A program made the translations under genes and the position numbers. 64,000 nt of DNA. It comes from Escherichia coli. GTDB lineage: Bacteria; Pseudomonadota; Gammaproteobacteria; Enterobacterales; Enterobacteriaceae. Positions 4,904-52,211 of this stretch are shown here, piece after piece (position 1 is the stretch's first letter; each line of letters opens with the position of its first letter). Below the pieces are notes generated by a model. The model was given only the letters and a program-made list of their open reading frames with translations, ran no database searches and was not told the origin of the DNA. The DNA lies in assembly GCF_036507355.1 (NCBI RefSeq), contig NZ_AP027877.1. One strand, 5' to 3'.

Positions 4904-6378
4904 CCCAGCATCGAGCCGGTTGCAATTAAATTACGGTGTAAGTCGAAGACGTGGCTAAGATCGTGGTGAATATGTCCGCCAGGCGCATTTTCCAGATAGC
5001 GATGCAGATAATCCCGATACATAGGATGTGCACAATTATCAATGATCGTGCGGGCGCGTTGAAGCGGGGAAAGACCGCGCAGATCGGCGATCCCTTGTTC
5101 GGTGATGATCACTTTGACGCTGTGTTCGCTGTGATCAACATGGCTGCACATTGGCACGACGGTTGAGATCTTGCCTTCTTTAGCAATCGATGGGGCCATA
5201 AAGATCGACAGATACGCGTTGCGTTCAAAATCACCGCTGCCGCCGATGCCGTTCATCAGATCGACCCCGGCTACGTGCGTTGAGTTGGCATGCCCGTAAA
5301 TATCAAACTCCAGGCCGACGTTCAGAGCGATGACGCCCAGACGACGGATGATTTCCGGGTTATTGGAAATCTCCTGCGGACGCAACACAATGCGGCTGGC
5401 AAAGTAATCCATATTGTCGTAAATCTTGCGCAGGGAATCGGCCGAGATTGTCAGGCTGGAGGCGCTGGCCCCGCTGATTTTGCCGGTTTCCAGTAAATGC
5501 ACCACCGATTCCTGTAGCACTTCCGAATACATCATAAACGGAGGAATTTCCGGGTTTTCCCCCAGACGCGCCATTACCGCATTATTGATATTGCCCACGC
5601 CACTTTGCAGCGGCAGAAATTCCGGCGGAATACGCCCATGCGCCATTTCCTGCAATAAGAACGTGACCACGTTATCGGCAATCTGCTGGCACATGGGATT
5701 TTGCTTATCCAGCATATTACCGGCGTCAGGCAAGTTGGTTTCCACGACGGCGACAATCTTTTTCGGATCGATTTGCACATAGCGGGTACCGACGCGATCC
5801 ATTGCATGGAAGATCGACACGCTATTGCGCCGTGGTGGCGCGCCAGGAATCACAATATCTGCCAGTTCTGCAACGCGCGGATCGTGATAGTGATTGAGTT
5901 CAATGATCACTTTCTTCGCTCGCAGCAGCCAGGTCGGCGCATTACCGATCCCGCTGGTTAACCAGACTCGACCATCTGGTGCCAGTGCCGATGCTTCAAT
6001 GACGGCAACATCAATGTCGCCGAAGAAACCGTAATTGACCATTTGCGCCACTTCGCTCAAATGCAGGTCAACGAAACTCACCGCGCCCTGATTGATCTTT
6101 TTACGTAAACCGGACGATGTTTGATATGGCGCACGCCAGGAAACAGCATCAGCGTCAGAAAGTACATCGTCAGCGGCGGCGCTGATTGACGCACCCGTCA
6201 GCAGGCGAATTTGATACGGCTTTTTAGCCTCATGCTGTTCGTTAGCTCTGCGGGCAATCGCGGTGGGTAGGGCTTTCGGTGAACCCGCTGGGGTAAAGCC
6301 GCTAAATGCCACCATGTCGTTATGCTGGATAATTTCTGCCGCTTCATCGGCGGTCATCCTTGTCCACTGAGTTTCCAT
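4900..6378 (-). CDS. scpC: Propionyl-CoA:succinate CoA transferase
   Basis: 492 aa, matches K-12 ScpC (YgfH). Confidence 0.95.
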   Translation of the reverse strand: METQWTRMTADEAAEIIQHNDMVAFSGFTPAGSPKALPTAIARRANEQHEAKKPYQIRLLTGASISAAADDVLSDADAVSWRAPYQTSSGLRKKINQGAVSFVDLHLSEVAQMVNYGFFGDIDVAVIEASALAPDGRVWLTSGIGNAPTWLLRAKKVIIELNHYHDPRVAELADIVIPGAPPRRNSVSIFHAMDRVGTRYVQIDPKKIVAVVETNLPDAGNMLDKQNPMCQQIADNVVTFLLQEMAHGRIPPEFLPLQSGVGNINNAVMARLGENPEIPPFMMYSEVLQESVVHLLETGKISGASASSLTISADSLRKIYDNMDYFASRIVLRPQEISNNPEIIRRLGVIALNVGLEFDIYGHANSTHVAGVDLMNGIGGSGDFERNAYLSIFMAPSIAKEGKISTVVPMCSHVDHSEHSVKVIITEQGIADLRGLSPLQRARTIIDNCAHPMYRDYLHRYLENAPGGHIHHDLSHVFDLHRNLIATGSMLG

Positions 6379-38293: not shown

Positions 38294-38321
38294 TTGCTAA
38301 GGAGAGCGTAAGGTTTATAAT
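38294..38321 (+). promoter_or_regulatory. Putative sigma70 promoter of glyU
   Basis: TTGCTA-N16-TATAAT, with the -10 element ending 17 nt before the mature tRNA 5' end. Confidence 0.5.
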
Positions 38322-38338
38322 GCCTTACGCATCTCGAA

Positions 38339-38412
38339 GCGGGCGTAGTTCAATGGTAGAACGAGAGCTTCCCAAGCTCTATACGAGGGTTCGATTCCCT
38401 TCGCCCGCTCCA
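38339..38412 (+). tRNA. glyU: tRNA-Gly (anticodon CCC)
   Basis: gcgggcgtagttcaatggtagaacgagagcttCCCaagctctatacgagggttcgattcccttcgcccgctcca. 74 nt, cloverleaf-compatible, CCA encoded. Confidence 0.95.
38390..38412 (+). repeat. attL core (glyU 3' end)
   Basis: 23 bp identical to 42585-42607. Confidence 0.85.
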
Positions 38413-38546
38413 TGACCTTTCTTAAAGTACTCCAACCTACTGAATCCTAAGGGATACGGCTTTAAGCCTTCCGCTAGTTTTACTCACTGTAACCAACACT
38501 GTAACTAAATTTGTTGAAATAGTGAGCAGACTTAAGATCTCAGTAC

Positions 38547-40178
38547 ATGCTCAACTCAAAAACCTATCTTTATCAGCGCAATGGCGTCTTTTATATCCGC
38601 CTCAGGATGAAGTCCACAGATCGCCTGACCGTTTCACATCCTTCCCATAGCCGTTATAAAATAGCGTCAGTATCACTACGGACTAAGGATAGACGTACAG
38701 CTATGGCTTACTCACGGCAAATCAAGGCAGCACTTAGGGCAATCCATGCAGACAGACCCAACGCCTCCTATGAGGAAATGAGGGAACACCTGAGGGACAT
38801 CGCAGAGTGGGAGTTGTCTACAGGTCGTTCAGACCTCTTCGAGCCAGATATGAGAGATCTATACCGTGACCAGTATGGGGAAGTGGGAGAGAATCTTGTC
38901 CATGCTCTGGCAAGCGAGCCACTGACTATTGACCAGCATCGCTATATTAATGAGGCTCTTAATGTACTCAAGGCCTGCATGAAGCGCATTGAAGCGGGAG
39001 ATAGCCAGCCACTTATAGATTATATAGATGGATTTGATGCTGCTGCTGGGGCTAATGGCCAAGCCTCTGCAACTCTATCTGTTAGTGCTCCCCAAAAAAC
39101 AAGCATTACTGAAGGCAAACACTGCGTAACCGTTGCTTCTCTCTTTGAGCAGTACGAGCAGGAAAACGCCCAGAACTGGAAGCCAGCAACATTACGAGAA
39201 AACAAAGCTTCTCATGCTGCGTTAATCGAAGTTTTTGATTATCTGGGCCTCAATGCTGACGCCAATGTGTTAGCTCGTGCGGATATGCTTAGGGTTCGGG
39301 ATATCCTCCAGCAATTGCCGAAGAATCGTAAGCAGCGTTTCAAAGATGTTCCGTTGGTTGACCTGCTAGGTCGTGAGGATAAAACCGATTGTCTGGATAT
39401 TGTTACCATCAATAATAAATATCTCATTAAGATGGCGGCTGTTTTCAAGTGGGCCGTGCGTAATGACCTGATTAAAAAGAATATGACAGAAGGGCTAGAG
39501 CTTAAGGTTCCCCAGCGTAAAGCCTCTGAGGCGCGTAATGCTTTCTCTACGGAGCAGGTAGGACAACTACTGGCTGCCGCCCAAGTTTACTCACAGAGAC
39601 CTTCTGGTAAGCCGTATCATTATTATGTTACCGCCTTGGCTGCTATCACTGGGGCGAGACTCAATGAAATAGCCCAACTACAGGTCAAAGACGTCAGGAC
39701 CACTGAGGCGGGAACCGTTTATATTCATATCAATGAAGACGATAGTAGTCTACCCGGTAAGAGCATCAAGAACGCTCATAGTGACCGCTGTGTGCCTCTG
39801 GTCGATGGGGCCTATGGTTTTATATTGGCTGACTTTATGAGGTTGGTTGAGACCCGTAGAGGCGCTGATGGTGATGACGCTATGGTGTTCGATGGTCTTC
39901 GCCTCATGAAGAACGGTTACGGTGAGCAGGTGAGTAAATGGTTTAATCGGACGTTGTTGCCTAAAGTCCTCGCAGACCGTAGCGGCTTAGCGTTTCACTC
40001 GTTTAGACATACAGTTGCGACCCAGTTAAAACAACATGGGGTCGAGTTGGCGTATGCACAGGCGATCATGGGGCATAGTTCAGGGTCTATTACTTACGAC
40101 CGTTATGCTAAAGAGGTTGAGGTTGATAGACTGGTCAATGTGATGGCTGATGTTTATAAGGAGGTTGTGGCCCCTTAA
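38547..40178 (+). CDS. Tyrosine recombinase / integrase (large, 543 aa)
   Basis: The C-terminal catalytic signature is visible: ..GARLNEIAQL.. (R), HSFRHTVATQL (HxxR), GHSSGSITYDRY (H..Y). The N-terminus YLYQRNGVFYIRLR is typical of integrase N-terminal arm-binding domains. Confidence 0.85.
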   Translation: MLNSKTYLYQRNGVFYIRLRMKSTDRLTVSHPSHSRYKIASVSLRTKDRRTAMAYSRQIKAALRAIHADRPNASYEEMREHLRDIAEWELSTGRSDLFEPDMRDLYRDQYGEVGENLVHALASEPLTIDQHRYINEALNVLKACMKRIEAGDSQPLIDYIDGFDAAAGANGQASATLSVSAPQKTSITEGKHCVTVASLFEQYEQENAQNWKPATLRENKASHAALIEVFDYLGLNADANVLARADMLRVRDILQQLPKNRKQRFKDVPLVDLLGREDKTDCLDIVTINNKYLIKMAAVFKWAVRNDLIKKNMTEGLELKVPQRKASEARNAFSTEQVGQLLAAAQVYSQRPSGKPYHYYVTALAAITGARLNEIAQLQVKDVRTTEAGTVYIHINEDDSSLPGKSIKNAHSDRCVPLVDGAYGFILADFMRLVETRRGADGDDAMVFDGLRLMKNGYGEQVSKWFNRTLLPKVLADRSGLAFHSFRHTVATQLKQHGVELAYAQAIMGHSSGSITYDRYAKEVEVDRLVNVMADVYKEVVAP

Positions 40179-40180
40179 GG

Positions 40181-40219
40181 ATGACCATAGGCGATGACCA
40201 TAGGCGATGACCATAGGCG
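40181..40219 (+). repeat. Tandem 13-bp repeat atgaccataggcg x3 (plus a partial fourth)
   Basis: Three perfect head-to-tail copies begin 3 nt after the integrase stop. Each contains the reverse complement of the CTATGGTC motif that recurs at 40239-40291 and 40821-40848. Confidence 0.9.
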
Positions 40220-40330
40220 ATGACACTTGCTACTATTCCTATGGTCCCCTTTGTGGTCCTATGTGGTCCTGTGTGACCCTTTGTGTGGTCATGTTTTGAC
40301 TCATAGTTTTCACTACTTGTCAAGCATATT

Positions 40331-40353
40331 TAATACGACTCACTATAGGGAGA
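40331..40353 (+). promoter_or_regulatory. Phage T7 RNA polymerase class III promoter consensus, 23/23 match
   Basis: TAATACGACTCACTATAGGGAGA is read directly, with an AT-rich -22..-18 region (atatt). Predicted +1 is the G at 40348. It points toward the cargo genes at 41158 and 41845. The sequence match is certain. Its function in vivo is inference. Confidence 0.85.
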
Positions 40354-40585
40354 AGGGACACAAAAAGTTTTCTCTCTCTGTCTCTCTCTATGATGACACT
40401 TGCTACTACTTCAGGTAGCTTTAACTCTAACCGTAACTTATCGCATCCTTTCAGGGGCGGGATGACCAATTACAGACACCAAGCGTTCTACTTAAAATGA
40501 ATGCTTCCTGTGTGCTCTGGGTCAGTCGATAAGTGAATAGCCTTAGACATCATATTAATTATGGTCTCTAACCCCTACAGGGGCT

Positions 40586-40729
40586 TAACTTTAAGTATTA
40601 ACTTATAGTCTACTTAAAGACACAATTAAAGATTAACTTAAAGTATTAAATTATAGATTAATTAAAGACCAATTAAAGAGTAACTTTAAGTATTAACTTA
40701 TAGTCTACTTAAAGACACAATTAAAGATT
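40586..40729 (+). repeat. Three tandem ~47-bp AT-rich iteron-like repeats
   Basis: The 49-bp string taactttaagtattaacttatagtctacttaaagacacaattaaagatt is identical at 40586-40634 and 40681-40729. A degenerate copy (40635-40680) lies between them. All are rich in TTAAAG submotifs. Confidence 0.85.
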
Positions 40730-40922
40730 GACTCTAAGGGAATACCTTAAGAGGTGATGATATTCATAATAATCAATCACCAAACCTATAGGTCTCCTCA
40801 AGGCATTACCCAGAAGCTAACTGTATGGCCCTGTATGGTCCTGTACGCCATTCTTTAGGATGCCATGTAGTTTCGTATGGCCTGATGCCTAGCGTGGCTC
40901 AGAGACCCTCCCAGTAGTAAAT

Positions 40923-40945
40923 CAATACGACTTACTAATAGGAGA
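40923..40945 (+). promoter_or_regulatory. Degenerate T7-like promoter
   Basis: caatacgacttactaataggaga matches the T7 consensus at 18/23 ungapped, or better if a 1-nt insertion near -3 is allowed. It lies 213 nt upstream of the 41158 ORF. Confidence 0.35.
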
Positions 40946-41157
40946 CACACTCCGAACCACTCACCACGTGTCTCTCAAAGTTCCACCTCTCGCGCTTCAC
41001 CATACAGTAGCTCCGCACAGCTACGACACAATCATTCATTCAATCTCAAAGTCATTCTGTTTGCATCCTGTTGTCCTGCTGGTCTCCCTTCGCTTGGGGA
41101 CTTTGAGTGGGCCAGTAGGGGGCGGTTTAGTGTGCATATTTAAAAGGTAACCAAGCA

Positions 41158-41721
41158 ATGAACAATAAACATAAACATGCAGGTCATATTATCACTATTG
41201 AAGGCCACAGCTTTAAGTCTAATGAGTCTGGCATGTGGAATCTTACAGAAATATGGAAAATCCTCGGATTACCTAACAATAAGCTACCCTCTCAGTGGCG
41301 CGGCAAGGTAACAAAGAGGCTCACCGACATGCAAAAAATGCACGTCGAGAAGATTGGTATTGAAAGCATAACCTACGCAGACAAACAGGCTACCCTCAAG
41401 TATGCAGGATGGGTCTCTGAAGATTTCGAGGACATGGTCTATGCAGCCTTTGAGGCTATCCTTGAGATGCCTGAAGTTGCCACGGTCGTTGCTAATAAGA
41501 TGGTCGAACTTGGCTATCACGCTGAAGCTGAGCTATTGGAACGTCATAAGGACGACTATAGAGAAGCTATGCAGACCCTTAAAAAGATTGGTAAACGTGT
41601 TGACGGCAGGAAGCCTGAGCGCATCTACAAGGCCGTACTTAACGGTAATCTGACGAAATTTCAAGGGTTATCCATGATTTCTCGCAGCAGTGTCTGGTAC
41701 GCCCGAACAGTGAATCTATGA
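41158..41721 (+). CDS. KilA-N-like DNA-binding domain protein (tentative)
   Basis: 187 aa. The N-terminal pattern is ..ITIEGHSFKSNESGMWNLTEIWKILGL..P.QW.. followed by ..TYADKQATLKYAGWVSEDFEDMV.. This resembles the KilA-N/Bro-type fold as I remember it. The C-terminal half is helical and basic. Confidence 0.5.
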   Translation: MNNKHKHAGHIITIEGHSFKSNESGMWNLTEIWKILGLPNNKLPSQWRGKVTKRLTDMQKMHVEKIGIESITYADKQATLKYAGWVSEDFEDMVYAAFEAILEMPEVATVVANKMVELGYHAEAELLERHKDDYREAMQTLKKIGKRVDGRKPERIYKAVLNGNLTKFQGLSMISRSSVWYARTVNL

Positions 41722-41844
41722 TGGCTATCGATCACGATAGATGCCAGCGATCAATTTCAGGTTACCGATCGAAACAAACGATCAGCACGATGGTTGCAAT
41801 CGGATATCATATTGACACTTGTCTGACATCCTGAAGGTATCAAT

Positions 41845-42318
41845 ATGTTTGGGCTTTTTAAGAAAAAGGCAAAAGCGGAAAGGTGTTATGATGTAACACG
41901 CATTCAATACGAGCTGGTTGTAATGTCATCTAAGCTGATAAAAAAACAGACCGATATGTTCAAAGTAATAAAAGGGGAGCGAGAGGAGGCTTTAGGAGAC
42001 CCTTTATTATCAGCAGGGTATATAACGCCATGGGTCATTGGATATTGCACTGGTCTCCTGGATGCAGTGACTCAGACGGAGGCTAACAGGATGGCATTTA
42101 CATCAGAAATGCTTGGGCTTCTTTTTGCTGCAGTTTTCGGTGATGATAAGTCTCTTGAGGCCATGGGAACTTATATAGCCTGTAACGAAGCCTCCTCACC
42201 AGACCATGGATTTCATGTTACGTATGAGCTTTATATGTCTGGTCTAGCGAAAGCGTTTAATGAGGTATGTGAGGATAAACCTGCGATAGGACTTCTGAAC
42301 TATTTAATGCAGGATTGA
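41845..42318 (+). CDS. Hypothetical protein (157 aa), no recognisable family
   Basis: Intact ORF on the same strand as the T7 promoter and the 41158 ORF. It is preceded by a GATC-rich spacer. Confidence 0.55.
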   Translation: MFGLFKKKAKAERCYDVTRIQYELVVMSSKLIKKQTDMFKVIKGEREEALGDPLLSAGYITPWVIGYCTGLLDAVTQTEANRMAFTSEMLGLLFAAVFGDDKSLEAMGTYIACNEASSPDHGFHVTYELYMSGLAKAFNEVCEDKPAIGLLNYLMQD

Positions 42319-42584
42319 AAATTTCCCACAAAAATCTCAGTGCCTATCTAACAGTAATAACCCTGCAACATTCCCCCGTATACCTCCAGAAGTTATCCAG
42401 AAGCCGAAGTAGGTATCCTGTCATGTATTTGAATCATCAAAGTTGTTCGTTCTATTCCTCTTTAGGGAATATTACAGCCCTACAGCCTTGACCAGAGATC
42501 ACTTGATGTGTAACCATAACTGTAACCAAAAGGATTCATCATCCTTTAAGAAACAATTGGTTAGTGAGTGATTGTCTTCGATAC

Positions 42585-42607
42585 TTCGATTCCCTTCGCC
42601 CGCTCCA
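42585..42607 (+). repeat. attR of islet 1, and remnant att junction preceding island 2
   Basis: ttcgattcccttcgcccgctcca, identical to the last 23 nt of glyU. Confidence 0.85.
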
Positions 42608-42771
42608 AACTCAAGTCTCCTGAAGTCTACCAAACTCAATTTTTCCTTGATAAATCAGCAGTTATAGCTTTCTATTAGTCTATTGAACTCAATTGTACTC
42701 CCCCAGGGTCAAGCTCAATGTGGGGGTATGGATGGGGGTATAATTGTACCCCCTGCTGAGAGGTACCCCCA

Positions 42772-43998
42772 ATGAAGCTGACTGCTCGTCAGGTTGAAAC
42801 TGCGAAACCCAAAGAGAAGCCCTACAAACTGGCCGATGGTGGTGGGCTTTACCTGCTGGTTAATCCCAACGGTAAAAGATACTGGCGTCTCAAATACCGT
42901 TCGTTAGGTAAAGAGAAGCTGCTCGCTATTGGCGTTTATCCCGATGTTTCTTTAGCTGAGGCCCGAAGTAAGCGTGAGGATGCTAAAAGAACATTAGCGG
43001 CTGGCAACGATCCCTCTCTTGAACGAAAAATTGAGAAACTTAGTCGTCAACAAGACGCTGAAAACTCGTTTGAGGCTATCACACGGGAGTGGTATCAGCG
43101 TCGCTATGACCGCTGGTCTGTCTCCTACCGCGAAGAAATGCTGAGAACCTTTGAGAAAGATGTATTTCCTTATATCGGTCACAGGCCAATCAAAGATATC
43201 AAGCCGATGGAGTTGCTTGCAGTTCTTTCAAAGATAGAAGCACGAGGGGCAACAGAGAAAGTCCGCAAGGTTCGTCAGCGTTGTGGAGAGGTCTGGAAGT
43301 ATGCCGTTGTGACTGGGAGGGCCGAGTACAATCCAGCACCTGATCTAGCCAGCGCCGTGAGTCCTCATGAGAAAGAGCACTATGCTTTTTTAACCCAGGA
43401 TGAATTGCCTGAGTTTCTTCGGACTCTGAACGCCTATGCCGGTAGTGTGCTTGTTAAGATTGCGATGCAATTGCTCATTTTAACAGGAGTAAGGCCAGGG
43501 GAGTTGAGGCAAGCGGAGTGGCAGGAGTTTGATTTTGAGAAAAAGGTTTGGAATGTACCAGCGGAACGTATGAAAATGCGCCGCCCTCATCTTGTTCCAT
43601 TATCAAGCCAGGCAATTGACCTGCTTAATCAACTTAAACCCATAACGGGAGCAGGAGCGTTATTATTCCCAGGACGTAATAATCCTAAGAAACCGATGAG
43701 CGATATGGCATTGACTGTGTTGGTCAGGCGTATCGGCTATGCCGGGCGCGTTACAGGGCATGGATTCCGCCACACGATGAGTACCATTTTGCATGAGCAG
43801 GGATTCAACTCGGCCTGGATTGAGTTACAGCTGGCTCACGTCGATAAGAACTCAATTCGTGGGACGTATAACCATGCTCAATATTTGGAAGGTCGGCGGG
43901 AGATGATGCAGTGGTATGGAGATTTCATCGGTCAAGCAGGCAAATCCGGATCATCGCTAGCTTATGCAGCTATTAGCTTGACTGCTGAATTAGAGTGA
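42772..43998 (+). CDS. P4-family tyrosine integrase
   Basis: 408 aa. The N-terminus MKLTARQVETAKPKEKPYKLADGGGLYLLVNPNGKRYWRLKYR is typical of the DUF4102 arm-binding domain. Catalytic residues: GVRPGELRQ (R), HGFRHTMST (HxxR), IRGTYNHAQY (Y). Confidence 0.9.
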   Translation: MKLTARQVETAKPKEKPYKLADGGGLYLLVNPNGKRYWRLKYRSLGKEKLLAIGVYPDVSLAEARSKREDAKRTLAAGNDPSLERKIEKLSRQQDAENSFEAITREWYQRRYDRWSVSYREEMLRTFEKDVFPYIGHRPIKDIKPMELLAVLSKIEARGATEKVRKVRQRCGEVWKYAVVTGRAEYNPAPDLASAVSPHEKEHYAFLTQDELPEFLRTLNAYAGSVLVKIAMQLLILTGVRPGELRQAEWQEFDFEKKVWNVPAERMKMRRPHLVPLSSQAIDLLNQLKPITGAGALLFPGRNNPKKPMSDMALTVLVRRIGYAGRVTGHGFRHTMSTILHEQGFNSAWIELQLAHVDKNSIRGTYNHAQYLEGRREMMQWYGDFIGQAGKSGSSLAYAAISLTAELE

Positions 43999-44008
43999 GA
44001 AGGGGCAA

Positions 44009-44039
44009 GTTGAGCCTCTTCGCTGAGAAGAGGCTCAAC
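44009..44039 (+). terminator. Hairpin after the integrase
   Basis: gttgagcctcttc-gctga-gaagaggctcaac, a 13-bp stem. A T7 run lies 10 nt downstream. Confidence 0.5.
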
Positions 44040-44195
44040 GTGAACCTATTTTTTTGGGAGTTAATACTTTTTGCAATTTTTTTTTTCGTGCCGTTGGATG
44101 TAAAGATCTGTGGGGGTTAGGGAAGAAAATCATGCTATGTTAGTCTTTGAGGAGTGAGTCAAAATGTTATAACTTTTTCAAAGAGGCGTTACATC

Positions 44196-45131
44196 GTGAA
44201 AGTCGTTTTTAATGTTAATGGTAAAAAAGTTCCGCTCAAATCTCTGCAATATATAAGTAAAGCAAATCAACTCGAAGTTATGCGGAATTGGTTTTTTGAG
44301 AATTTTGAAGATCCCGCGAACTCTTGCCCGTATGAATCCCGTGAAGGCGGGTATGCTTACATTTATGGGGGCCCATACGAAGCAAGTGAAGAGTTGCAAG
44401 CGATGTTTGAAGGACACGTGAAATTTGATTATATCCAAGAATTAGTCAATGAATTACAAGAACAGTGCTATGAATGGTCTGGTAATTCAAATAATATTAA
44501 TGATTGGTACGATGAAGACTTGTATGATGCTGTTACATCTTCTGAACATCCTTTTTCTAAGTTCGTTGAAAGCATTGATGGAATAAAATTGCTGTCTAAA
44601 GGCGAATTTAAAGATAAACAAAAAGATCATCTGCTTAGCATCCTATATATTAATGTCATTACAGCCCTGGAAACACTTTATGTTGAGTTATTTATTAACT
44701 CTATAGATAAAAACGACTCATATCTTGCTGACTTTATAGAAAAAGGTAAGACGGAATTTAAGGTAAATAAAGGAATATTGGCTTTGCCATTCAAAGGAGA
44801 AACTATTGAAAACATGAGGGCGCAATTAATTAAGGTAATTAAAGAGCATTTGATTAGTGCAAGTTGGCATAGTACAAACAAAGTTGTAGGACGTTATAAA
44901 GCTACATTTGATATAAAAGTACATAAAGAGTGGCCAATAGATGTGATCGAAATAGCAACTCAAAAGCGTAATCATTTAGTCCATCGTGGCGGGAAAGATA
45001 AAGAAGGTAATTCGGTAGTGATTACTGAACAGGATTTAGAAATGTTGCTGGATCACGCACAATCTCTTGGAGAAAAATTGTTTGATAGCCTTGAGGTGGC
45101 ATTACAGAAAAAAGATGAGAATGAATTTTGA
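44196..45131 (+). CDS. Candidate HEPN-domain (Rx4H) protein; the track ORF begins at 44154
   Basis: GTG at 44196 is preceded by aagagg at good spacing. The C-terminal region contains ..ATQKRNHLVHRGGKD.. (R-N-x-x-x-H), the hallmark HEPN RNase motif. The N-terminal domain is unassigned. Confidence 0.4.
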   Translation: MKVVFNVNGKKVPLKSLQYISKANQLEVMRNWFFENFEDPANSCPYESREGGYAYIYGGPYEASEELQAMFEGHVKFDYIQELVNELQEQCYEWSGNSNNINDWYDEDLYDAVTSSEHPFSKFVESIDGIKLLSKGEFKDKQKDHLLSILYINVITALETLYVELFINSIDKNDSYLADFIEKGKTEFKVNKGILALPFKGETIENMRAQLIKVIKEHLISASWHSTNKVVGRYKATFDIKVHKEWPIDVIEIATQKRNHLVHRGGKDKEGNSVVITEQDLEMLLDHAQSLGEKLFDSLEVALQKKDENEF

Positions 45132-45206
45132 GTCTCGGGGTAGGTTGATAGTGCTACCGATAACGAGCAAGCAAATGATACTCGGCAGGCAGTGCCTGCC
45201 GGAGGA

Positions 45207-46910
45207 TTACTTTTTACTTCCAAATTGAATGCCGAGAAGTTTATTCTCTGCTTTATCGCCACGTAGAGTAAGAACAATTTTTGATTTCAGTTCTAACATT
45301 TCGATTTCAGATAAAGTTGTTTCCATAGCATTAAAGTTTTCAGTGTTTAAAGATGCTATATATTGCTTTCCGCTTCGTTTTAATGACTGATTGACAAATG
45401 AGAACCATCTTGCGCGAACACCTGGATCTATATCAGCAAAAAGACGGTTATCATGCCATAGCATATCCATGGCATGGTTTTCACCACATGTAAATACTAA
45501 CCAGTCAAAGCATAATATCCTAGCATCATTGATCCCATCCGAATCATCACCCTCGATTTGGATGCTTAGATCATAACGAATTTTGTTGTCACCAGTATTA
45601 ACATCCAAAACTATTCCTGCTGGTACCCTTGGGTACATTATTTCTGCGAGCTCAGCAAAAATTTTATCGTATTCTGAAAGAGGATTTGTAGAAGCATAGT
45701 TTACCGCTAATCTGTCTTGTTCAACTTTTCGTTCTCTTAGATTTTGAGCTTTCTGTTGAAGGTTAATAGAAAAATTTAAATAATCATGTAACCTTTCTTT
45801 TTCTTCTTTAAATTCAGCTAGTTGTCTAGCTATGACTGCGTATTCATCAAATGCTTTCTTGCCTTGCAGGGATTCCAAATATGAATCACGTAATGCTGAA
45901 ATATCCTTAATGTCAATTTTAAGAGATTCAATTTCTAACAAAAGTTTTACTTTATCATTTTCAAGTCTTTTCTTTCTGTTAAAAGATAATGATTTGTGAA
46001 AATTTTCAACTGACTCAAAATGGGCCAATGTTTCTGGCTTGAAAATCTCTTGTAAGCCATTGTACAGTTCAAGAAGCTCTTCTCTTGAAATGTCAGGGTG
46101 TTCTAATAAAGTTTTTTCTATATTATTTACTTTAAATTCAGCTATATTTTTGTTTTTTTCAACTTCTCGTAATTTTATAGTTAAACTGTTTGTTTCATTC
46201 TCAATAGCTCTGTATTGCTCGTGAACTTGAAATGCATTCAGTTCATCCTGCAGTCTTGGGATCTCTCTTTCTAGCCACTCATAGCGTACTTTAGGTTGAG
46301 AGCCTGCTCTAAACATGTCTTTTAGAATATCATCGTCTTGCCAATTTTTTAGCGATTGACTTACTTTATCCAGCTCTTGCTTATTATTTCTTTTAGATAA
46401 TATTAAATTATGATCTATACCGAGAAGAAATGCGGTACGAAGCAATGCTTCAAAGTCTTGCTCCTTTTTTGTCCTAGTTGGACTGATGCAGTCATCTCTG
46501 GTATATCGCGAAAAACGCTTAAATAAAGATCTGAATGATAAATACGGAATGTTATTCTCAAGATTAAATATTCCTATTTTATCTAATAAATCTTTAAATG
46601 CTTTTAAAGATATTGTTTTGTCATTTAATAATAATTTTTTTCCATTGCCCGTTCTAGATATTAAGTACTCAACTCCATTATGAGAAAAAAGTAAAGAGAA
46701 CCACCAATCTGGAACTGCTGAAGTTAATTTTTTATCAGCATTAGCTCCTAAACAATGTTGAATGAGACCGAGAATAAGTGTCTTACCGACTCCGTTACTA
46801 CTGCCTTCTTTTTCTTTAGAGCTATCACCAATGATCAACGTTAGTCCTGTATCATTGAAATGCACTGGATGAAAAGTTGGCTGATCGCAAGTTAAGCGAA
46901 TTAACTTCAT
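45207..46910 (-). CDS. SMC/ABC-type ATPase with coiled-coil insert (LmuB / ABC-3C ATPase-like, DUF2326-like)
   Basis: 567 aa. Walker A is SSNGVGKT. There is a long K/E-rich coiled-coil middle, and the C-terminal block is ..DDSDGINDARILCFDWL... Its start codon abuts the stop of the upstream small ORF (taaATG). Confidence 0.6.
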   Translation of the reverse strand: MKLIRLTCDQPTFHPVHFNDTGLTLIIGDSSKEKEGSSNGVGKTLILGLIQHCLGANADKKLTSAVPDWWFSLLFSHNGVEYLISRTGNGKKLLLNDKTISLKAFKDLLDKIGIFNLENNIPYLSFRSLFKRFSRYTRDDCISPTRTKKEQDFEALLRTAFLLGIDHNLILSKRNNKQELDKVSQSLKNWQDDDILKDMFRAGSQPKVRYEWLEREIPRLQDELNAFQVHEQYRAIENETNSLTIKLREVEKNKNIAEFKVNNIEKTLLEHPDISREELLELYNGLQEIFKPETLAHFESVENFHKSLSFNRKKRLENDKVKLLLEIESLKIDIKDISALRDSYLESLQGKKAFDEYAVIARQLAEFKEEKERLHDYLNFSINLQQKAQNLRERKVEQDRLAVNYASTNPLSEYDKIFAELAEIMYPRVPAGIVLDVNTGDNKIRYDLSIQIEGDDSDGINDARILCFDWLVFTCGENHAMDMLWHDNRLFADIDPGVRARWFSFVNQSLKRSGKQYIASLNTENFNAMETTLSEIEMLELKSKIVLTLRGDKAENKLLGIQFGSKK

Positions 46911-47216
46911 TTAACTTTCCTTATTTTTTAATTTGTCATAATTGCAACAGATTGGCATTATTCTGTTTTCATTATCTAGCGTTATTTGTTTGATGCAAAA
47001 AAGAATGTCTACGGCAAGTATAAATTGTGTAAAAGAGGGCGTGATTATCGTTGATTTATTTTTCCGCTCTATTTTTGTCCATAGTTCTTCTATGGATACC
47101 GGTCCATCAATTAACGAACGGATGTATCCTGCAATCGCAATTAGGGAGTTACTAAACCTAACATGCTTATGTGGCAGAAGCATTGCTTGGATGTTCATAA
47201 GCATCACATGTCTCAA
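46911..47216 (-). CDS. Small middle-component-like protein (LmuC / ABC-3C MC-like); possibly the 3' part of a frameshifted ~148-codon gene
   Basis: 101-aa ORF with a TTG start, translationally coupled to the ATPase. A 62-aa ORF in another frame (47167..47355) fills the gap back to the upstream gene. Confidence 0.4.
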   Translation of the reverse strand: MRHVMLMNIQAMLLPHKHVRFSNSLIAIAGYIRSLIDGPVSIEELWTKIERKNKSTIITPSFTQFILAVDILFCIKQITLDNENRIMPICCNYDKLKNKES

Positions 47217-47390
47217 AATATTTAGCTAAAATTAACTCTGCAGCAAATCGATAACTCGCGACCGCACTTGTGGGAACTTGCGGGGGAAGGAGTTTATCTA
47301 TCATCCAAGTATATCTTAAATCTGCATAATTGTGGTTATCTTCAGTTATCGCCAATTTACTTTTTGCATAAGTATCTCTAACTTCTTGAG

Positions 47391-48173
47391 CTATAGTTTG
47401 TTCAAGACCACAAGACCATTATCAACAGAATCTAAAAATTCATTTATCAAATATAGTTGATAGCTAAAAGATTCCAGCCTGCTTTTTATTGGTTTTGTAA
47501 TACCATTTATTTTTATTTTATCTTCGAAGTCCGGGGCTGTTTCACTTAAAAAATTCATGGGTGAAGAAGATTTTTGTGCTAAAAAAGTCAATACTTCACC
47601 AACAGCTCGAGTATCTGTAAAGTCTAAATTAACCTCAGGAATGAAACCTACAATATCTTGCTTTTCACCCTCGGATAATGACATAAACTTTTGAAGGAGC
47701 TCCATCCCACCCATTGCACCTGCGTGATTAAGACTTTTACTGATTGCAAGTGTATTTAATGAAAGTCCAACAGGTGCTGGAATACCCTTGAAATAATCAT
47801 TCATTACAAAAGTATATTTTGATACTTTCCCCCATTTGGCGACTAATTTATCAAAGTCGCCAATCGATTTATTAACAGCTTCTAGCTCTTTGGTTTGATT
47901 TGAAGGTTTAGGTCCATAAACTTGGAAGTAATGAGCCTCATGAGCAATCCACCCATCATTCCCGCCATCTCCCCAGTTTCCCCAAGGGGAAACAGCTTGA
48001 AAGCCAGGAGTCGCGTATTGCATAACCTTCGAAAAAAGCGCCTGAAAACTGTCTCCCATACATTCATGTACTTTTAACCGAAAGAACTGTCTGTAGAGGT
48101 AATCTTGCTGTGTCGAACTCATTTTCCTCTCATCCATGATGAACACTTTTGATGATAATATCCTCTCATTCAT
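47391..48173 (-). CDS. Putative effector of the three-gene system, with an N-terminal Mrr-like PD-(D/E)xK motif (LmuA-like); start may be M18
   Basis: 260 aa. The GNWGDGGNDGWI motif resembles the GDGGIDG motif of the Mrr catalytic domain. The C-terminal half is helical. It is the first gene of the operon. Confidence 0.4.
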   Translation of the reverse strand: MNERILSSKVFIMDERKMSSTQQDYLYRQFFRLKVHECMGDSFQALFSKVMQYATPGFQAVSPWGNWGDGGNDGWIAHEAHYFQVYGPKPSNQTKELEAVNKSIGDFDKLVAKWGKVSKYTFVMNDYFKGIPAPVGLSLNTLAISKSLNHAGAMGGMELLQKFMSLSEGEKQDIVGFIPEVNLDFTDTRAVGEVLTFLAQKSSSPMNFLSETAPDFEDKIKINGITKPIKSRLESFSYQLYLINEFLDSVDNGLVVLNKL

Positions 48174-48282
48174 TGTTGTAAACCTATGATTAGCAAAATT
48201 GGAGATGCTTTCACTTTAGAGTTGGTATCTAAAGGTTATAAATTATCAAAACAGGTTGTATAGATATCAAATTGAATACGAT

Positions 48283-48310
48283 TTGACATATATGTTAATC
48301 TGATTAGTAT
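48283..48310 (+). promoter_or_regulatory. Putative ars promoter
   Basis: TTGACA-N16-TAGTAT, located ~25 nt upstream of the arsR ATG. Confidence 0.4.
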
Positions 48311-48332
48311 CAGAGAAAAACAGGAGTCCTTA

Positions 48333-48683
48333 ATGTCGCTTATCCCCCTACAACTCTTCAAAAACCTCTCCGATGAAACCCGTTTGGGCATCGTGTTGCT
48401 GCTTAGAGAGATGGGAGAGCTGTGCGTGTGCGACCTTTGCACTGCGCTAGAACAGTCGCAGCCCAAGATCTCCCGTCATCTGGCAATGCTCCGGGAAAGT
48501 GGTCTATTGCTGGATCGTAAACAGGGCAAGTGGGTTCACTACCGCTTATCCCCGCATATTCCTTCCTGGGCCGCTCAGGTGATTGAGCAGGCCTGGTTAA
48601 GCCAACAGGACGATGTGCAGGCCATCGCCCGTAAGCTGGCATCAGCAAACTGCTCTGGTAGCGGTAAGGCTGTTTGTATCTAA
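48333..48683 (+). CDS. arsR: Arsenical resistance operon repressor
   Basis: 116 aa. Contains ELCVCDLC, the As(III)-binding motif. Near-identical to the remembered R773 ArsR. Confidence 0.95.
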   Translation: MSLIPLQLFKNLSDETRLGIVLLLREMGELCVCDLCTALEQSQPKISRHLAMLRESGLLLDRKQGKWVHYRLSPHIPSWAAQVIEQAWLSQQDDVQAIARKLASANCSGSGKAVCI

Positions 48684-48730
48684 AAAATTTGCCTGAACAT
48701 ATATGATTTTTCGAATGCGAGGTGTTCAGA

Positions 48731-49093
48731 ATGAAAAAGTTAACGGTGTTTGACCCGGCAATGTGCTGCAGTACCGGCGTATGTGGCTCAGATGTCGATC
48801 AGGTTCTGGTTGATTTTTCTGCTGATGTGCAGTGGCTGAAAGGACGTGGCGTACAGGTTGAACGTTACAACCTGGCGCAGCAGCCCATGAGCTTTGTTCA
48901 AAATGAGAAAGCGAAAGCATTCCTCGAAGCATCTGGAGCAGAAGGGCTTCCGTTACTGCTGTTGGACGGTGAAACGGTGATGGCAGGGCGATACCCAAAA
49001 CGCGCTGAGCTGGCTCGCTGGTTCGGTATACCGCTGGAGAAGGTAGGTTTAGCTCCCACCAGCTGCTGTGGTGGTAATACTTCCTGTTGCTGA
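48731..49093 (+). CDS. arsD: Arsenic metallochaperone / trans-acting repressor ArsD
   Basis: 120 aa from MKKLTVFDPAMCCSTGVCG.., ending CCGGNTSCC. Confidence 0.95.
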   Translation: MKKLTVFDPAMCCSTGVCGSDVDQVLVDFSADVQWLKGRGVQVERYNLAQQPMSFVQNEKAKAFLEASGAEGLPLLLLDGETVMAGRYPKRAELARWFGIPLEKVGLAPTSCCGGNTSCC

Positions 49094-49110
49094 GTATGTC
49101 AGGAGGACAT

Positions 49111-50862
49111 ATGAAATTCTTACAGAATATCCCGCCTTACCTGTTTTTTACCGGTAAGGGAGGTGTAGGAAAAACTTCTATTTCCTGCGCGACGGCAATC
49201 CGCCTTGCTGAACAGGGTAAGCGGGTTTTGCTGGTCAGTACCGATCCGGCCTCCAATGTCGGCCAGGTATTCGATCAGGCTATCGGTAACACCATTCGCC
49301 CTGTGGCAGCAGTTCCTGAACTTTCCGCTCTGGAAATCGACCCGCAGGAAGCCGCCAAACAATATCGTTCCAGAATCGTTGCTCCTATCAAAGATCTTTT
49401 GCCTGATGACGTTGTTAACAGTATCAGCGAGCAGCTTTCAGGAGCCTGTACCACTGAGATTGCGGCGTTTGATGAGTTCACCGGCTTATTGACAGACGCT
49501 TCCCTGCTGACCCGCTTCGATCACATCATTTTTGATACAGCGCCGACGGGCCACACGATTCGCCTTCTCCAGCTTCCCGGTGCCTGGAGTAACTTCATTG
49601 AGAGTAACCCGGATGGTGCTTCCTGTCTTGGCCCAATGGCCGGACTGGAAAAGCAGCGTGAGCAGTATGCTCATGCGGTAGAGGCGTTATCCGATCCTGA
49701 ACGTACCCGCCTGGTTCTGGTTGCAAGACTGCAAAAATCCACGCTGCAGGAAGTCGCCCGCACCCATGAAGAACTCGCCGCAATTGGCCTGAAAAACCAG
49801 TACCTGGTGATTAATGGTGTGCTGCCTAAAGCCGAAGCTGAACATGACGCCCTGGCCGCTGCGATATGGCAACGTGAACAGGAGGCACTGGCAAATCTTC
49901 CTGCCGGTTTATCCGGGTTGCCGACAGATACCCTATTACTACAGCCAGTCAATATGGTTGGTGTTTCAGCATTGAAGGGACTGCTGGATACCCGTTCTGA
50001 GGCATTACCGCTCCCGGTAACGAACATCCAGTACACGCCTGAAAACATATCGCTCTCTGGCCTGGTCAATGATATCGCCCGCAGTGAACACGGCCTGATT
50101 ATGCTGATGGGCAAAGGTGGCGTGGGTAAAACCACGATGGCTGCTGCCATCGCCGTAAGGCTGGCGGATATGGGATTTGATGTCCATCTCACCACCTCAG
50201 ATCCCGCTGCACATCTCAGTACCACGCTGAACGGTAGCCTTAATAACCTGCAGGTCAGCAGGATTAATCCACACGAAGAAACCGAACGCTATCGCCAGCA
50301 TGTTCTTGAGACGAAGGGTAAAGATCTGGACGAAGCAGGGAAACGGCTACTGGAAGAGGATTTGCGCTCTCCCTGTACTGAAGAAATTGCCGTGTTTCAG
50401 GCCTTTTCCAGGGTGATTCGTGAAGCGGGTAAACGGTTTGTTGTCATAGATACCGCCCCTACCGGACACACGCTGTTGCTGCTGGATGCGACCGGGGCTT
50501 ACCACCGAGAGATTGCCAAAAAAATGGGGAGTAAAGGTCATTTTACTACCCCAATGATGCAGCTTCAGGATCCGGATAGAACCAAAGTTCTGCTTGTTAC
50601 GCTTCCTGAAACCACACCGGTTCTGGAAGTGGCAAACCTGCAGGCTGACCTTGAAAGAGCGGGGATTCATCCGTGGGGCTGGATTATCAATAACAGCCTT
50701 TCCATTGCGGATACGCGTTCTCCGTTGCTTTGCCAGCGCGCCCGGCAGGAACGGCCTCAGATTGAGGCTGTTAAGAATCAGCATGCTGAGCGTATAGCGC
50801 TTGTTCCGGTGCTGGCGTCAGAGCCCGCCGGTATTAAAAAGCTCAGAGAGTTGATGAGTTAA
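49111..50862 (+). CDS. arsA: Arsenite-stimulated ATPase ArsA
   Basis: 583 aa from [23 protein letters not shown], with SD aggagg. Two P-loops (GKGGVGKT x2) and DTAPTGHT x2. Confidence 0.97.
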
Positions 50863-50909
50863 TTTTTTGGCATATACAGGGCGGCAAAGTCGCCCTGTCA
50901 GGAGGTTTT

Positions 50910-52199
50910 ATGTTACTGGCAGGCGCTATTTTTGTCCTGACCATTGTTTTGGTTATCTGGCAACCAAAGGGATTAGGGATCGGCTGGAGTGCAATGCTGG
51001 GCGCGGGACTGGCTCTGATATCAGGCGTTGTGCATGTGGGCGATATTCCGGTGGTGTGGAATATCGTCTGGAACGCGACGGCGACCTTTATTGCCGTAAT
51101 TATTATCAGCCTGCTGCTTGATGAGTCCGGTTTTTTCGAATGGGCAGCGCTGCACGTTTCCCGCTGGGGTAACGGTCGTGGACGTTTGCTCTTTACGTAT
51201 ATCGTTCTGCTCGGTGCGGCGGTGGCGGCACTGTTTGCCAACGATGGTGCGGCACTTATTCTGACGCCGATAGTCATCGCCATGCTGCTGGCATTAGGGT
51301 TCAGCAAAGGCACCACGCTGGCATTCGTCATGGCTGCCGGTTTTATTGCCGATACGGCCAGCCTGCCGCTTATCGTGTCGAACCTGGTGAATATAGTCTC
51401 GGCGGACTTCTTTGGACTGGGCTTCACTGAGTATGCGTCGGTAATGGTGCCGGTGGATATTGCCGCTATTATCGCCACGCTGGTGATGCTGCATCTGTTC
51501 TTCCGCAAAGATATTCCACCGACTTACGACCTGGCTCTCCTGAAAGCACCGGCAAAGGCGATTAAAGATCTGGCAACCTTCAGAACCGGCTGGATAGTTT
51601 TAATTCTTCTGCTGGTTGGGTTCTTTGTCCTCGAGCCGCTCGGTATTCCCGTTAGCGCGATTGCGGCTGTTGGAGCTGTGATCCTGTTTGCTGTAGCTAA
51701 ACGAGGCCATGCCATTAACACCGGCAAAGTGCTGCGCGGTGCGCCATGGCAGATCGTCATCTTCTCATTGGGGATGTACCTGGTGGTCTACGGTCTGCGC
51801 AACGCCGGGCTAACCGAATACCTTTCAGGTGTGCTGAACGTACTGGCGTATAAAGGACTCTGGGCCGCAACGCTGGGTACTGGTTTCCTGACGGCTTTCC
51901 TCTCTTCCATCATGAACAACATGCCTACCGTGCTGGTTGGCGCTCTCTCGATCGATGGAAGCACCGCATCCGGCGTTATTAAAGAGGCGATGATCTACGC
52001 CAACGTGATTGGCTGCGATCTGGGGCCGAAAATTACACCTATTGGTAGCCTGGCAACGCTGCTCTGGCTGCATGTACTTTCACAGAAGAATATGACCATC
52101 ACCTGGGGATACTATTTCCGCACCGGGATCGTCATGACTCTGCCTGTGCTGTTTGTAACGCTGGCCGCGCTGGCGCTACGTCTCTCTTTCACTTTGTAA
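50910..52199 (+). CDS. arsB: Arsenite efflux permease ArsB
   Basis: 429 aa, polytopic, ArsB family. Confidence 0.95.
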
Positions 52200-52211
52200 T
52201 GAGATACTGAT

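Follow-up and report, generated by a model that had tools for sequence, protein, structure and literature searches.

A tandem AT-rich array in a tRNA-Gly islet of Escherichia coli resembles T7-type replication origins and probably belongs to a novel phage-satellite family

A 64,000-nt stretch of an Escherichia coli chromosome (contig NZ_AP027877.1; hereafter, the window) carries at positions 40585-40738, on the + strand, an array of 3.2 tandem ~48-bp units with 80-82% A+T. The array lies in a 4,195-bp islet (38413-42607) integrated at tRNA-Gly. It is the least stable DNA of this islet, which imitates a promoter, an origin-type block and the genome-end signals of phage T7, so the repeats most likely aid T7-type phage replication of the islet. 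The array would be a T7-type origin block, a kind of element that is already known, and the element that hosts it is probably a new satellite family. More specifically, we propose with roughly even confidence that the array would be the AT-rich zone in which a transcription-primed origin of the T7 type is unwound and primed. We also lean, somewhat more firmly, towards the view that the islet and its relatives from ~12 enterobacterial genera may constitute a novel satellite family whose helpers are virulent T7-group (Studiervirinae) phages.

The same 49 nt stand at 40586-40634 and at 40681-40729, as the original prediction had claimed from the letters of this DNA, and the exact match is not extendable. 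A chance origin of a 49-nt exact repeat in 64 kb is impossible. Tandem Repeats Finder delimited 40585-40738 with a period of 48, 3.2 copies, 85% matches, a score of 245 and a sub-period of 11-12. A repeat search recovered three copies spaced by 48 and 47 nt, the middle one being 71% identical to the first over 58 nt, which agrees with the degenerate central copy and the ~47-bp period that had been predicted. The units contain 10 of the TTAAAG/TTATAG words noticed earlier plus two inverted CTTTAAG words, giving 12 words of the form A(C/A)TTA(A/T)AG at a spacing of 11-13 bp. Altogether, 10 of the 44 TTAWAG words found on the + strand of the window fall inside the 154 nt of the array. The word consensus pooled over related arrays is 9 nt long, A(C/A)TTA(A/T)AG(A/T), with A at position -2 in 74 of 75 cases, while its TTA.AG positions are fixed by the search pattern itself.

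No other 100 bp of the window is as unstable as the array, whose nearest-neighbour free energy is -103 kcal/mol, while the islet averages -133.7 +/- 7.5. The four 100-bp segments of lowest stability in T7 start at 383, 18558, 5905 and 39250, corresponding to phiOL, phi6.5, phi1.1B and phiOR, respectively. The phi1.1A/B region is the primary origin of this phage, phiOR and phi6.5 are secondary origins, and a T7 promoter is needed at each origin (PMC8373140). As at the T7 origins phi1.1A/phi1.1B, phiOR, phi6.5 and phiOL, the phage-polymerase promoter of the islet is directed into the AT-rich stretch where the element is least stable. Among relatives of the islet from different genera, 11 of 15 have their least stable 100 bp at +110 to +460 nt from the first phage-type promoter.

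Sequence comparison pointed to two of these regions of T7. When the array was compared by BLAST with the 39.9-kb genome of the phage, each of the eight best matches fell in 403-498, which runs from phiOL (+1 = 405) to the A1 promoter, or in 5912-6008, the AT-rich region past phi1.1B at the primary origin. A single unit aligned to T7 405-500 with a score of 18, compared with 9.6 +/- 1.8 for dinucleotide shuffles, 0 of 1000 of which reached 18. Against the primary-origin block the unit scored 16, a value equalled by 7 of 1000 shuffles. The array and the primary origin share the strings TTAACTTTAAG and AATTAAAGA at similar spacing. They also both hold a primase-type site within the block, judged by the words GGGTC, TGGTC and GTGTC, which we take to be recognition sites of the gp4 primase; the array has one such site per unit on the bottom strand (GTGTC at 40619 and 40714, TGGTC at 40667). 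They differ in that the array is tandem and 150 nt long, whereas the T7 block is a single copy of ~61 nt, and the origin function of the array is a predicted one. The best match in the T3-like coliphage LL2 was the phiOL-to-A1 block (E 3e-6). The summed BLAST bits in the T7 origin regions (876 for the array, 270 +/- 71 for shuffles) were set aside because the internal repetition of the array inflates the sum about three-fold; the per-unit tests are valid. A viral contig that matched a 20-mer of the array (L022) proved to be a chance match.

Comparison of the array with the short-repeat arrays near T7-group genome ends revealed CTTAAAG-type words after phiOL in fPS-52, Yepe2, LL2 and T7. In fPS-52, six tandem units of 23 bp (ATACTTAAAGAACACTTAGAGTC) come after phiOL together with four further CTTAAAG words, a tandem arrangement like that of the islet, and the blocks of Yepe2, LL2 and T7 (410-470) are shorter. 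These phage blocks and the islet array have in common the words, a spacing of 11-12 bp and the position after the terminal promoter. The phage block runs directly into the first strong host promoter (A1), whereas the islet keeps only a vestige at the array end, ATTGACTCTAAG, which corresponds to the -35 region of the first annotated host promoter of Yepe2 and is not accompanied by a -10 element. The array might represent tandem host sigma-70 promoters or UP elements copying the T7 A1-A3 early cluster, which would drive the downstream genes before or without phage. Consistent with such copying, the best T7 alignment of a unit is the A1 promoter, with 30 of 38 positions matched and a score reached by 0 of 1000 shuffles. 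Nevertheless, a consensus scan for sigma-70 promoters and terminators detected neither in the array and no sigma-70 promoter after it, the would-be -10 (TCTACT) has no A at position 2, and the -35 is TTAACT in most units, which leaves this explanation very improbable.

A word block of 113-237 nt with 3-14 words is found between constant flanks in all islets of the T7-promoter type. The left border, constant in every variant, is a small hairpin, CCCCTACAGGGG (40572-40583, + strand), and the right border is the hairpin GGTGATGATATTCATAATAATCAATCACC (40753-40781, + strand), the right flank reading ...CTCTAAGGGAATACCTTAAGAGGTGATGATATT...ATCACC. The latter hairpin is similar to the GGTGAT...ATCACC hairpins that follow phiOR in T7 (~39340-39365) and LL2. 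Absence of the repeats from related islets had been named in advance as evidence against the original prediction; we looked for it, and the word block turned out to be conserved. The number of words is 10 + 2 in the window and 14 in the related loci L002 and L003, and the block is single and non-tandem in L015, L008/L024 and L009. Since word number varies between fixed flanks, the three tandem units are a recent and unstable expansion. They would have arisen from an ancestral block of ~90-110 nt, which we propose to be homologous to the CTTAAAG-word block after phiOL in T7/T3-like phages. The functional unit, if there is one, would be the ~12-bp word or merely an AT-rich tract.

An expansion of this kind could be neutral. 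The array would then be a phiOL-to-A1 spacer inherited from a phage and tripled by slippage or unequal crossing-over, with no sequence-specific role. Such a relic would account for the range of 3-14 words between close relatives, for the -35 vestige of the Yepe2 promoter without its -10, for the lack of the block in some relatives, and for copies 1 and 3 being identical at 49 of 49 positions, which indicates a very recent duplication. It would not account for the words being kept (again, A at position -2 in 74 of 75) between constant flanks across diverged islets, for the persistence of the block though A1, which it precedes in phages, is gone, or for its placement downstream of the promoter being conserved across genera. 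We consider a neutral relic unlikely. It is the weightiest of the alternatives for the array, followed in order by protein binding or silencing, a packaging-related role, and decayed host promoters.

A T7 RNA polymerase promoter with 0 mismatches, TAATACGACTCACTATAGGGAGA (40331-40353, + strand), reads toward the array. Its +1 is at 40348, and the array therefore starts 238 nt downstream, close to the ~235 nt first estimated. When the non-coding region was compared with a phage database, the promoter segment was the sole part that matched. The only other T7-like promoter in the window at <=6 mismatches is a degenerate + strand site with 5 mismatches at 40923-40945, which is conserved in L001-L006. 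Between promoter and array lies a highly conserved structured block of ~100 nt (40436-40534, + strand) that is near-invariant in E. coli, Klebsiella, Rouxiella, Morganella and Edaphovirga, and its conservation exceeds that of the integrase. Its predicted closing helix, ACTTATCG/CGATAAGT, shows a compensatory change in Klebsiella. An Rfam scan of the islet returned tRNA only, with no family for this block, and a search of T7 for homology to the conserved segment 40354-40585 found none. We consider the block a candidate phage-transcribed non-coding RNA.

Pfam and PHROG scans detected no Rep, primase or helicase gene in the islet. Anatomy, sequence similarities, duplex stability, conservation and this lack of replication genes are what we observed, and from them we infer each functional step as follows. 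Upon infection, the phage RNA polymerase would fire the perfect promoter, and transcription would pass through the conserved structured block into the array, where the islet duplex is least stable. The transcript would open the array DNA and prime T7 DNA polymerase, as happens at the origins of T7 itself. The gp4 helicase-primase could then load on the displaced strand, where each unit offers one bottom-strand primase site (GACAC or GACCA on the top strand). Finally, the amplified, concatemeric islet would be cut at mimics of the terminal-repeat boundaries (42347 and 39077) and packaged.

The layout of a T7 promoter followed by an AT-rich, origin-like region, as originally predicted, is supported by the perfect promoter, the least stable 100 bp, the matches to T7 origin blocks and the lack of an own replication protein; its difference from T7 is the 238-nt gap. 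The prediction had also mentioned classic initiator-binding iterons. Like the iteron origins of plasmids and lambdoid phages, the array consists of direct repeats beside or within AT-rich DNA. Unlike them, it comes without an initiator gene, its unit is a ~12-bp word present in variable and unstable number, and no DnaA box (TTWTNCACA) or IHF site (WATCAANNNNTTR) occurs anywhere in the islet. Nor does the array co-vary with a regulator, as L007 combines an array with a Rha-family gene, and L009 combines KilA-N with a reduced, non-tandem block. On these grounds, classical iterons find no support.

Similar considerations apply to the idea of a protein-binding array, recognised by the KilA-N/Rha-type regulator of the islet, by H-NS or Fis, or by a phage protein. 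Binding would silence the islet until infection or tune the downstream genes. The regular word spacing of 11-13 bp, the defined 9-nt consensus and the presence of a DNA-binding regulator gene always after the non-coding region speak for this idea, and DNA of 80% A+T is a typical H-NS target. However, the array is independent of regulator type, as L007 and L009 illustrate, the same words occur in phages without these regulator genes, and the IHF consensus is missing. A binding or silencing role is accordingly unlikely, slightly below the neutral relic in our ranking.

Several observations weigh against a role of the array in T7-type replication. The AT-rich block of the islet begins 238 nt past +1, behind the conserved structured block, whereas those of T7 begin within ~20 nt. 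The tandem organisation is lineage-specific and unstable (3-14 words), and Citrobacter/Enterobacter-type relatives have no strongly AT-rich block. The likeness to T7 is modest and partly compositional, in that the top match of the shuffles also fell in the two T7 regions in 21% and the observed top bit score was reached by 7 of 200 shuffles. The best single T7 alignment of the unit is the A1 host promoter and not an origin. In addition, the phiOL block of the phages might itself serve A1 as an UP element, or packaging, and not replication.

Further evidence for a link to T7-group phages came from mimics of both ends of their genomes. A left-end processing-site mimic of T7/T3 was found at 42305-42400 (+ strand), with a predicted cut at 42346/42347 within ACAAAAATCTCAGTGCCTA / TCTAACAGT...TTCCCCCGTATACC (here and below, the slash marks the cut). 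In its longer form it reads ...CCCACAAAAATCTCAGTGCCTA / TCTAACAGTAATAACC...TTCCCCCGTATACC, and the T7 counterpart is ...ACCATAAAAATCTGAGTGACTA / TCTCACAGTGTACGGACC...TTCCCCCATAGG, where the slash is the start of the terminal repeat at T7 39778 (equivalent to position 1). Phage AP5 aligns likewise, and its annotated right terminal repeat_region begins at the slash. The mimic spans the first ~50 nt of the terminal repeat, with a CCCCC(A/G)TA element. A 111-nt query from this left end matched 117 records in the phage database; the 30 of 117 that were listed are all 37.5-40.8 kb in size, with a best E of 6e-4, and several of the matches among these listed records fall on annotated terminal repeats. 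Against LL2, the left-end mimic gave an E of 1e-7.

The right-end mimic, CTCTGCAACTCT / ATCTGTTAGTG (39065-39087, + strand), reproduces the end of the T7/T3 terminal repeat plus ATCTGTT and lies in the linker of the integrase. In relatives it reads CTCTGTGTCCCT / ATCTGTTA, a 20/20 match to T7 149-168 (CTCTGTGTCCCTATCTGTTA) that includes ATCTGTT; the mimic is seen, for example, at 1880-1913 in L007 and ~5490-5510 in L024. We take ATCTGTT to be the class II signal that makes T7 RNA polymerase pause where concatemer units join. Pausing of this polymerase at the concatemer junction has been linked to packaging (PMC3276506). The motif is kept as DNA across genera within a hypervariable, indel-rich part of the integrase, where it is translated as SVSLSV (S(V/A)(S/T)LSV overall), which points to selection on the DNA of this segment of the integrase open reading frame (ORF). 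On the + strand, the order promoter, left cut, terminal repeat and pause site is that of the phage, in the same orientation. In the excised circle, the predicted terminal repeat would run from 42347 through attP to 39076, over 925 bp; the left-end cut is 238 nt before attR, which places attP inside this repeat. In relatives from five genera the predicted terminal repeat measures 847-958 bp.

These end mimics bear on a packaging-related role of the array, whose words would be read by the terminase or aid concatemer processing; a packaging or terminase recognition array had also been offered as an alternative in the original prediction. A TAAAG core is common to the array and the CCTAAAG repeats of the T7 left end, and the rest of the islet mimics T7 ends. 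In T3/T7, packaging is reportedly tied to transcription from the terminal promoters (Hashimoto and Fujisawa 1992). Another paper links T3/T7 packaging to transcription from terminal promoters (PMC3276506). However, the array is ~1.5-1.6 kb from both predicted cut sites, and it lies downstream of the promoter and not between terminal repeat and promoter. Two other arrays, at 40180-40285 and 40821-40845, already occupy the positions expected of terminal short repeats, and much better end-processing mimics exist elsewhere in the islet, at 42347 and 39077. A packaging role of the array is thus unlikely as well.

As is usual for phage satellites, the islet combines an integrase and att sites with an absence of virion genes, and both of its end mimics resemble the packaging and end-processing sites of the would-be helper. 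Scans of its three large ORFs against Pfam and PHROG, together with the ORF lists, revealed no replication, packaging or virion gene. On balance we favour an element that has no replication or packaging proteins of its own and would rely on cis mimics, namely a locally matched promoter, an AT-rich origin-type block and both terminal-repeat boundaries. With a full set of cis mimics and no trans genes, the islet would therefore be transcribed, replicated, cut and packaged by the helper, presumably as concatemers of ~6-9 units. Unit lengths are 4.15-6.45 kb, in clusters of ~4.15-4.22, 4.45-4.56, 5.45-5.49 and 6.1-6.45 kb (38413-42607 in the window, L001-L009, L024-L040 and L054-L058). For most islets, a whole number of units plus the predicted terminal repeat gives 37.4-39.5 kb, and over the clusters together 36.5-39.5 kb, near the genome size of T7-group phages. 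This quantisation of unit length is suggestive of concatemer packaging, but we do not count it as evidence, as variants of 4.45 and 4.56 kb lead to 36.5-37.4 or 41-42 kb and the pattern is not significant under a realistic capsid tolerance.

Other searches weigh against a satellite. The attP junction expected of a circle or concatemer occurred in 0 viral contigs and 0 metagenome contigs, and the whole islet matched no record in the phage collection. The left-end site pattern was found in six metagenome contigs, in all of which the islet matches end at the att boundary 42607/42608, with no attP junction. In the plasmid collection, the whole islet had one partial match, covering the integrase only. 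The islet might instead be a decayed remnant of a T7-like prophage or an abortive-infection island triggered by phage polymerase, with the array as a by-product. The phage promoters upstream of a KilA-N-type gene, and the lack of direct evidence of excision or packaging in public contigs and phage records, would be in keeping with this. On the other side stand the same compact 4.1-6.5-kb layout in many genera, a terminal-repeat mimic inside the integrase ORF, a steady distance of ~850-960 bp between the end mimics, and no phage structural gene in the scans and ORF lists mentioned above. We judge a remnant or abortive-infection island quite improbable, and a satellite of T7-group phages is the interpretation we retain.

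Two described systems help to interpret such a satellite. In laboratory T7 phagemids, a plasmid bears the T7 origin together with a pac site and a terminal repeat (Chung and Hinkle 1990, cited by PMC13236587). Exactly these three elements are needed for a phagemid to be replicated, packaged and transduced by T7 (PMC13236587). The islet likewise offers a candidate for each of these cis elements and lacks trans functions. It differs in being natural, in residing in the chromosome by means of its own integrase, in having attP within the predicted terminal repeat, and in the length of that repeat, ~925 bp compared with 160 bp in T7. The closest described system is PICMI, which are satellites of virulent vibriophages (PMC10803314). 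PICMI resemble the islet as very small integrative elements with no capsid genes and a virulent helper, that of the islet being predicted. They are packaged as a concatemer of helper-genome length, and the same is expected of the islet. PICMI bring their own core proteins for excision and replication, and their ends are random and headful-like, whereas the islet has no replication gene and displays phage-polymerase promoters and mimics of defined ends. Full-text literature searches returned no description of a natural satellite of T7-group phages, nor of islets in chromosomes that combine T7 promoters with end mimics.

A satellite of T7, if real, would fill a gap in a model system, T7 being one of the best-studied phages. 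The islet would then amount to a naturally occurring T7 phagemid, living in wild strains of E. coli, Klebsiella, Citrobacter and other genera. Through transduction and possibly interference it would bear on therapies that use T7-like phages, and T7-based tools for packaging or replication could take it as a natural model. A 4-kb element of this kind makes it testable what the phiOL/phiOR promoters, the AT-rich word blocks and the terminal short repeats do, and the natural array variants with 3 to 14 words are a ready dosage series.

The distribution of promoters among relatives adds to this picture. Integrases with 64-85% amino-acid identity were found in ~12 genera (Klebsiella, Citrobacter, Buttiauxella, Shimwellia, Enterobacter, Kluyvera, Proteus, Pectobacterium, Lonsdalea, Edaphovirga, Morganella and Rouxiella). 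Most of these relatives have a promoter directly after the integrase, with the core CACTATAGGGAGA or a near variant and a different specificity region. Their promoter core is of the CACTATAGG type, with GGGAGA in most, and those of Lonsdalea and Pectobacterium are off by 1-2 bases. The types include that of T7, that of K11 (AATTAGGGCA), that of ICP3/N4 (AATTAACCCA) and several others that are unassigned. The K11 type occurs beside the T7 type in Klebsiella and in E. coli (L008), and the AATTAACCCA promoter occurs 11-15 times per genome in ICP3/N4-type vibriophages. Promoter specificity should vary between genera in this way if the element is driven by the polymerase of whichever T7-group phage infects its host. 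Relatives bearing these promoters include L024 (7276-7830), L008 (3296-3875), L026, L028, L029, L031, L034 and L037-L041. Promoter number also varies, with two copies each in L005, L006 and L007, and a 121-bp unit with a perfect T7 promoter present three times in L014 (5512-5880).

Other repeats surround the promoter. The short-repeat arrays at 40180-40285 (+ strand) consist of the 13-bp GATGACCATAGGC in 3.5 copies and of 10-bp repeats containing TGGTC, and they hold the same position as the short repeats upstream of phiOL in T7-group phages. Tandem-repeat searches revealed further 10-bp repeats, CTGTATGGCC/CTGTATGGTC, at 40821-40845 (+ strand). Both of these flanking arrays are rich in the T7 primase-type words TGGTC and GGGTC. 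Their copy number varies, as GATGACCATAGGC is present 13.5 times in L004 (2936-3110) compared with 3.5 times in the window, and TAGGGTCTCTCTC is present 14.7 times in L007 (3713-3902). The sequence TCTCTCTCTGTCTCTCTCTAT just past the promoter (40354-40392) is weakly similar to T7 146-164, where the terminal repeat has its right end, and GATGACACTTGCTACTA occurs twice, at 40219 and 40392.

The islet is bounded by a 23-nt exact direct repeat of the 3' end of tRNA-Gly(CCC) (gene 38339-38412), for which 0 matches are expected by chance. The attL core is at 38390-38412 and the attR core at 42585-42607, both on the + strand, and matches to other E. coli genomes stop at 42607/42608. Three large ORFs are encoded on the + strand. 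The first, at 38547-40178, is a tyrosine integrase of 543 aa (Pfam Phage_integrase 2e-18; PHROG 1 integrase 3e-42). It is followed by ~1 kb of non-coding DNA that contains the array, and then by a KilA-N-like DNA-binding regulator of 187 aa at 41158-41721 (Pfam KilA-N 9.5e-4, under the family cut-off; PHROG 129 transcriptional regulator 8e-10), in whose place L007 has the Rha-family gene. The third is an accessory ORF of 157 aa at 41845-42318, which has no Pfam or PHROG family match and no annotated gene at its position in L004-L006. No credible small ORFs were found in the islet. The spacer between the last two ORFs (41722-41844) has four GATC in CGATC-type repeats (41730, 41749, 41767 and 41780) and may act in regulation or be sensitive to methylation.

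The window belongs to the E. coli chromosome and has, besides tRNA-Gly(CCC), actS, an IS1 element and a lysS-like gene for a class II aminoacyl-tRNA synthetase. At least 80% of 38300-42800 is present in 35 of 5,426 complete E. coli genomes, and non-coding DNA related to that of the islet is present in 350 E. coli genomes. In strain SBF22, the islet stands alone between tRNA-Gly and yqeG. In the window, the attR copy of the tRNA end has received a second, unrelated island in tandem (42608-52200), with a P4-type integrase (42772-43998), a HEPN/RES-like protein, a candidate defence system made of DUF2326 and an ABC-3C middle component, and then an arsRDAB-type arsenic-resistance cluster. Insertion sequences have entered islets of this type in other strains. 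In E. coli WCHEC025970, EC31 and Sanji (L055, L057 and L058), the islet is broken by ISEc12 at three different positions, and L002 has an IS3-family insertion within the integrase.

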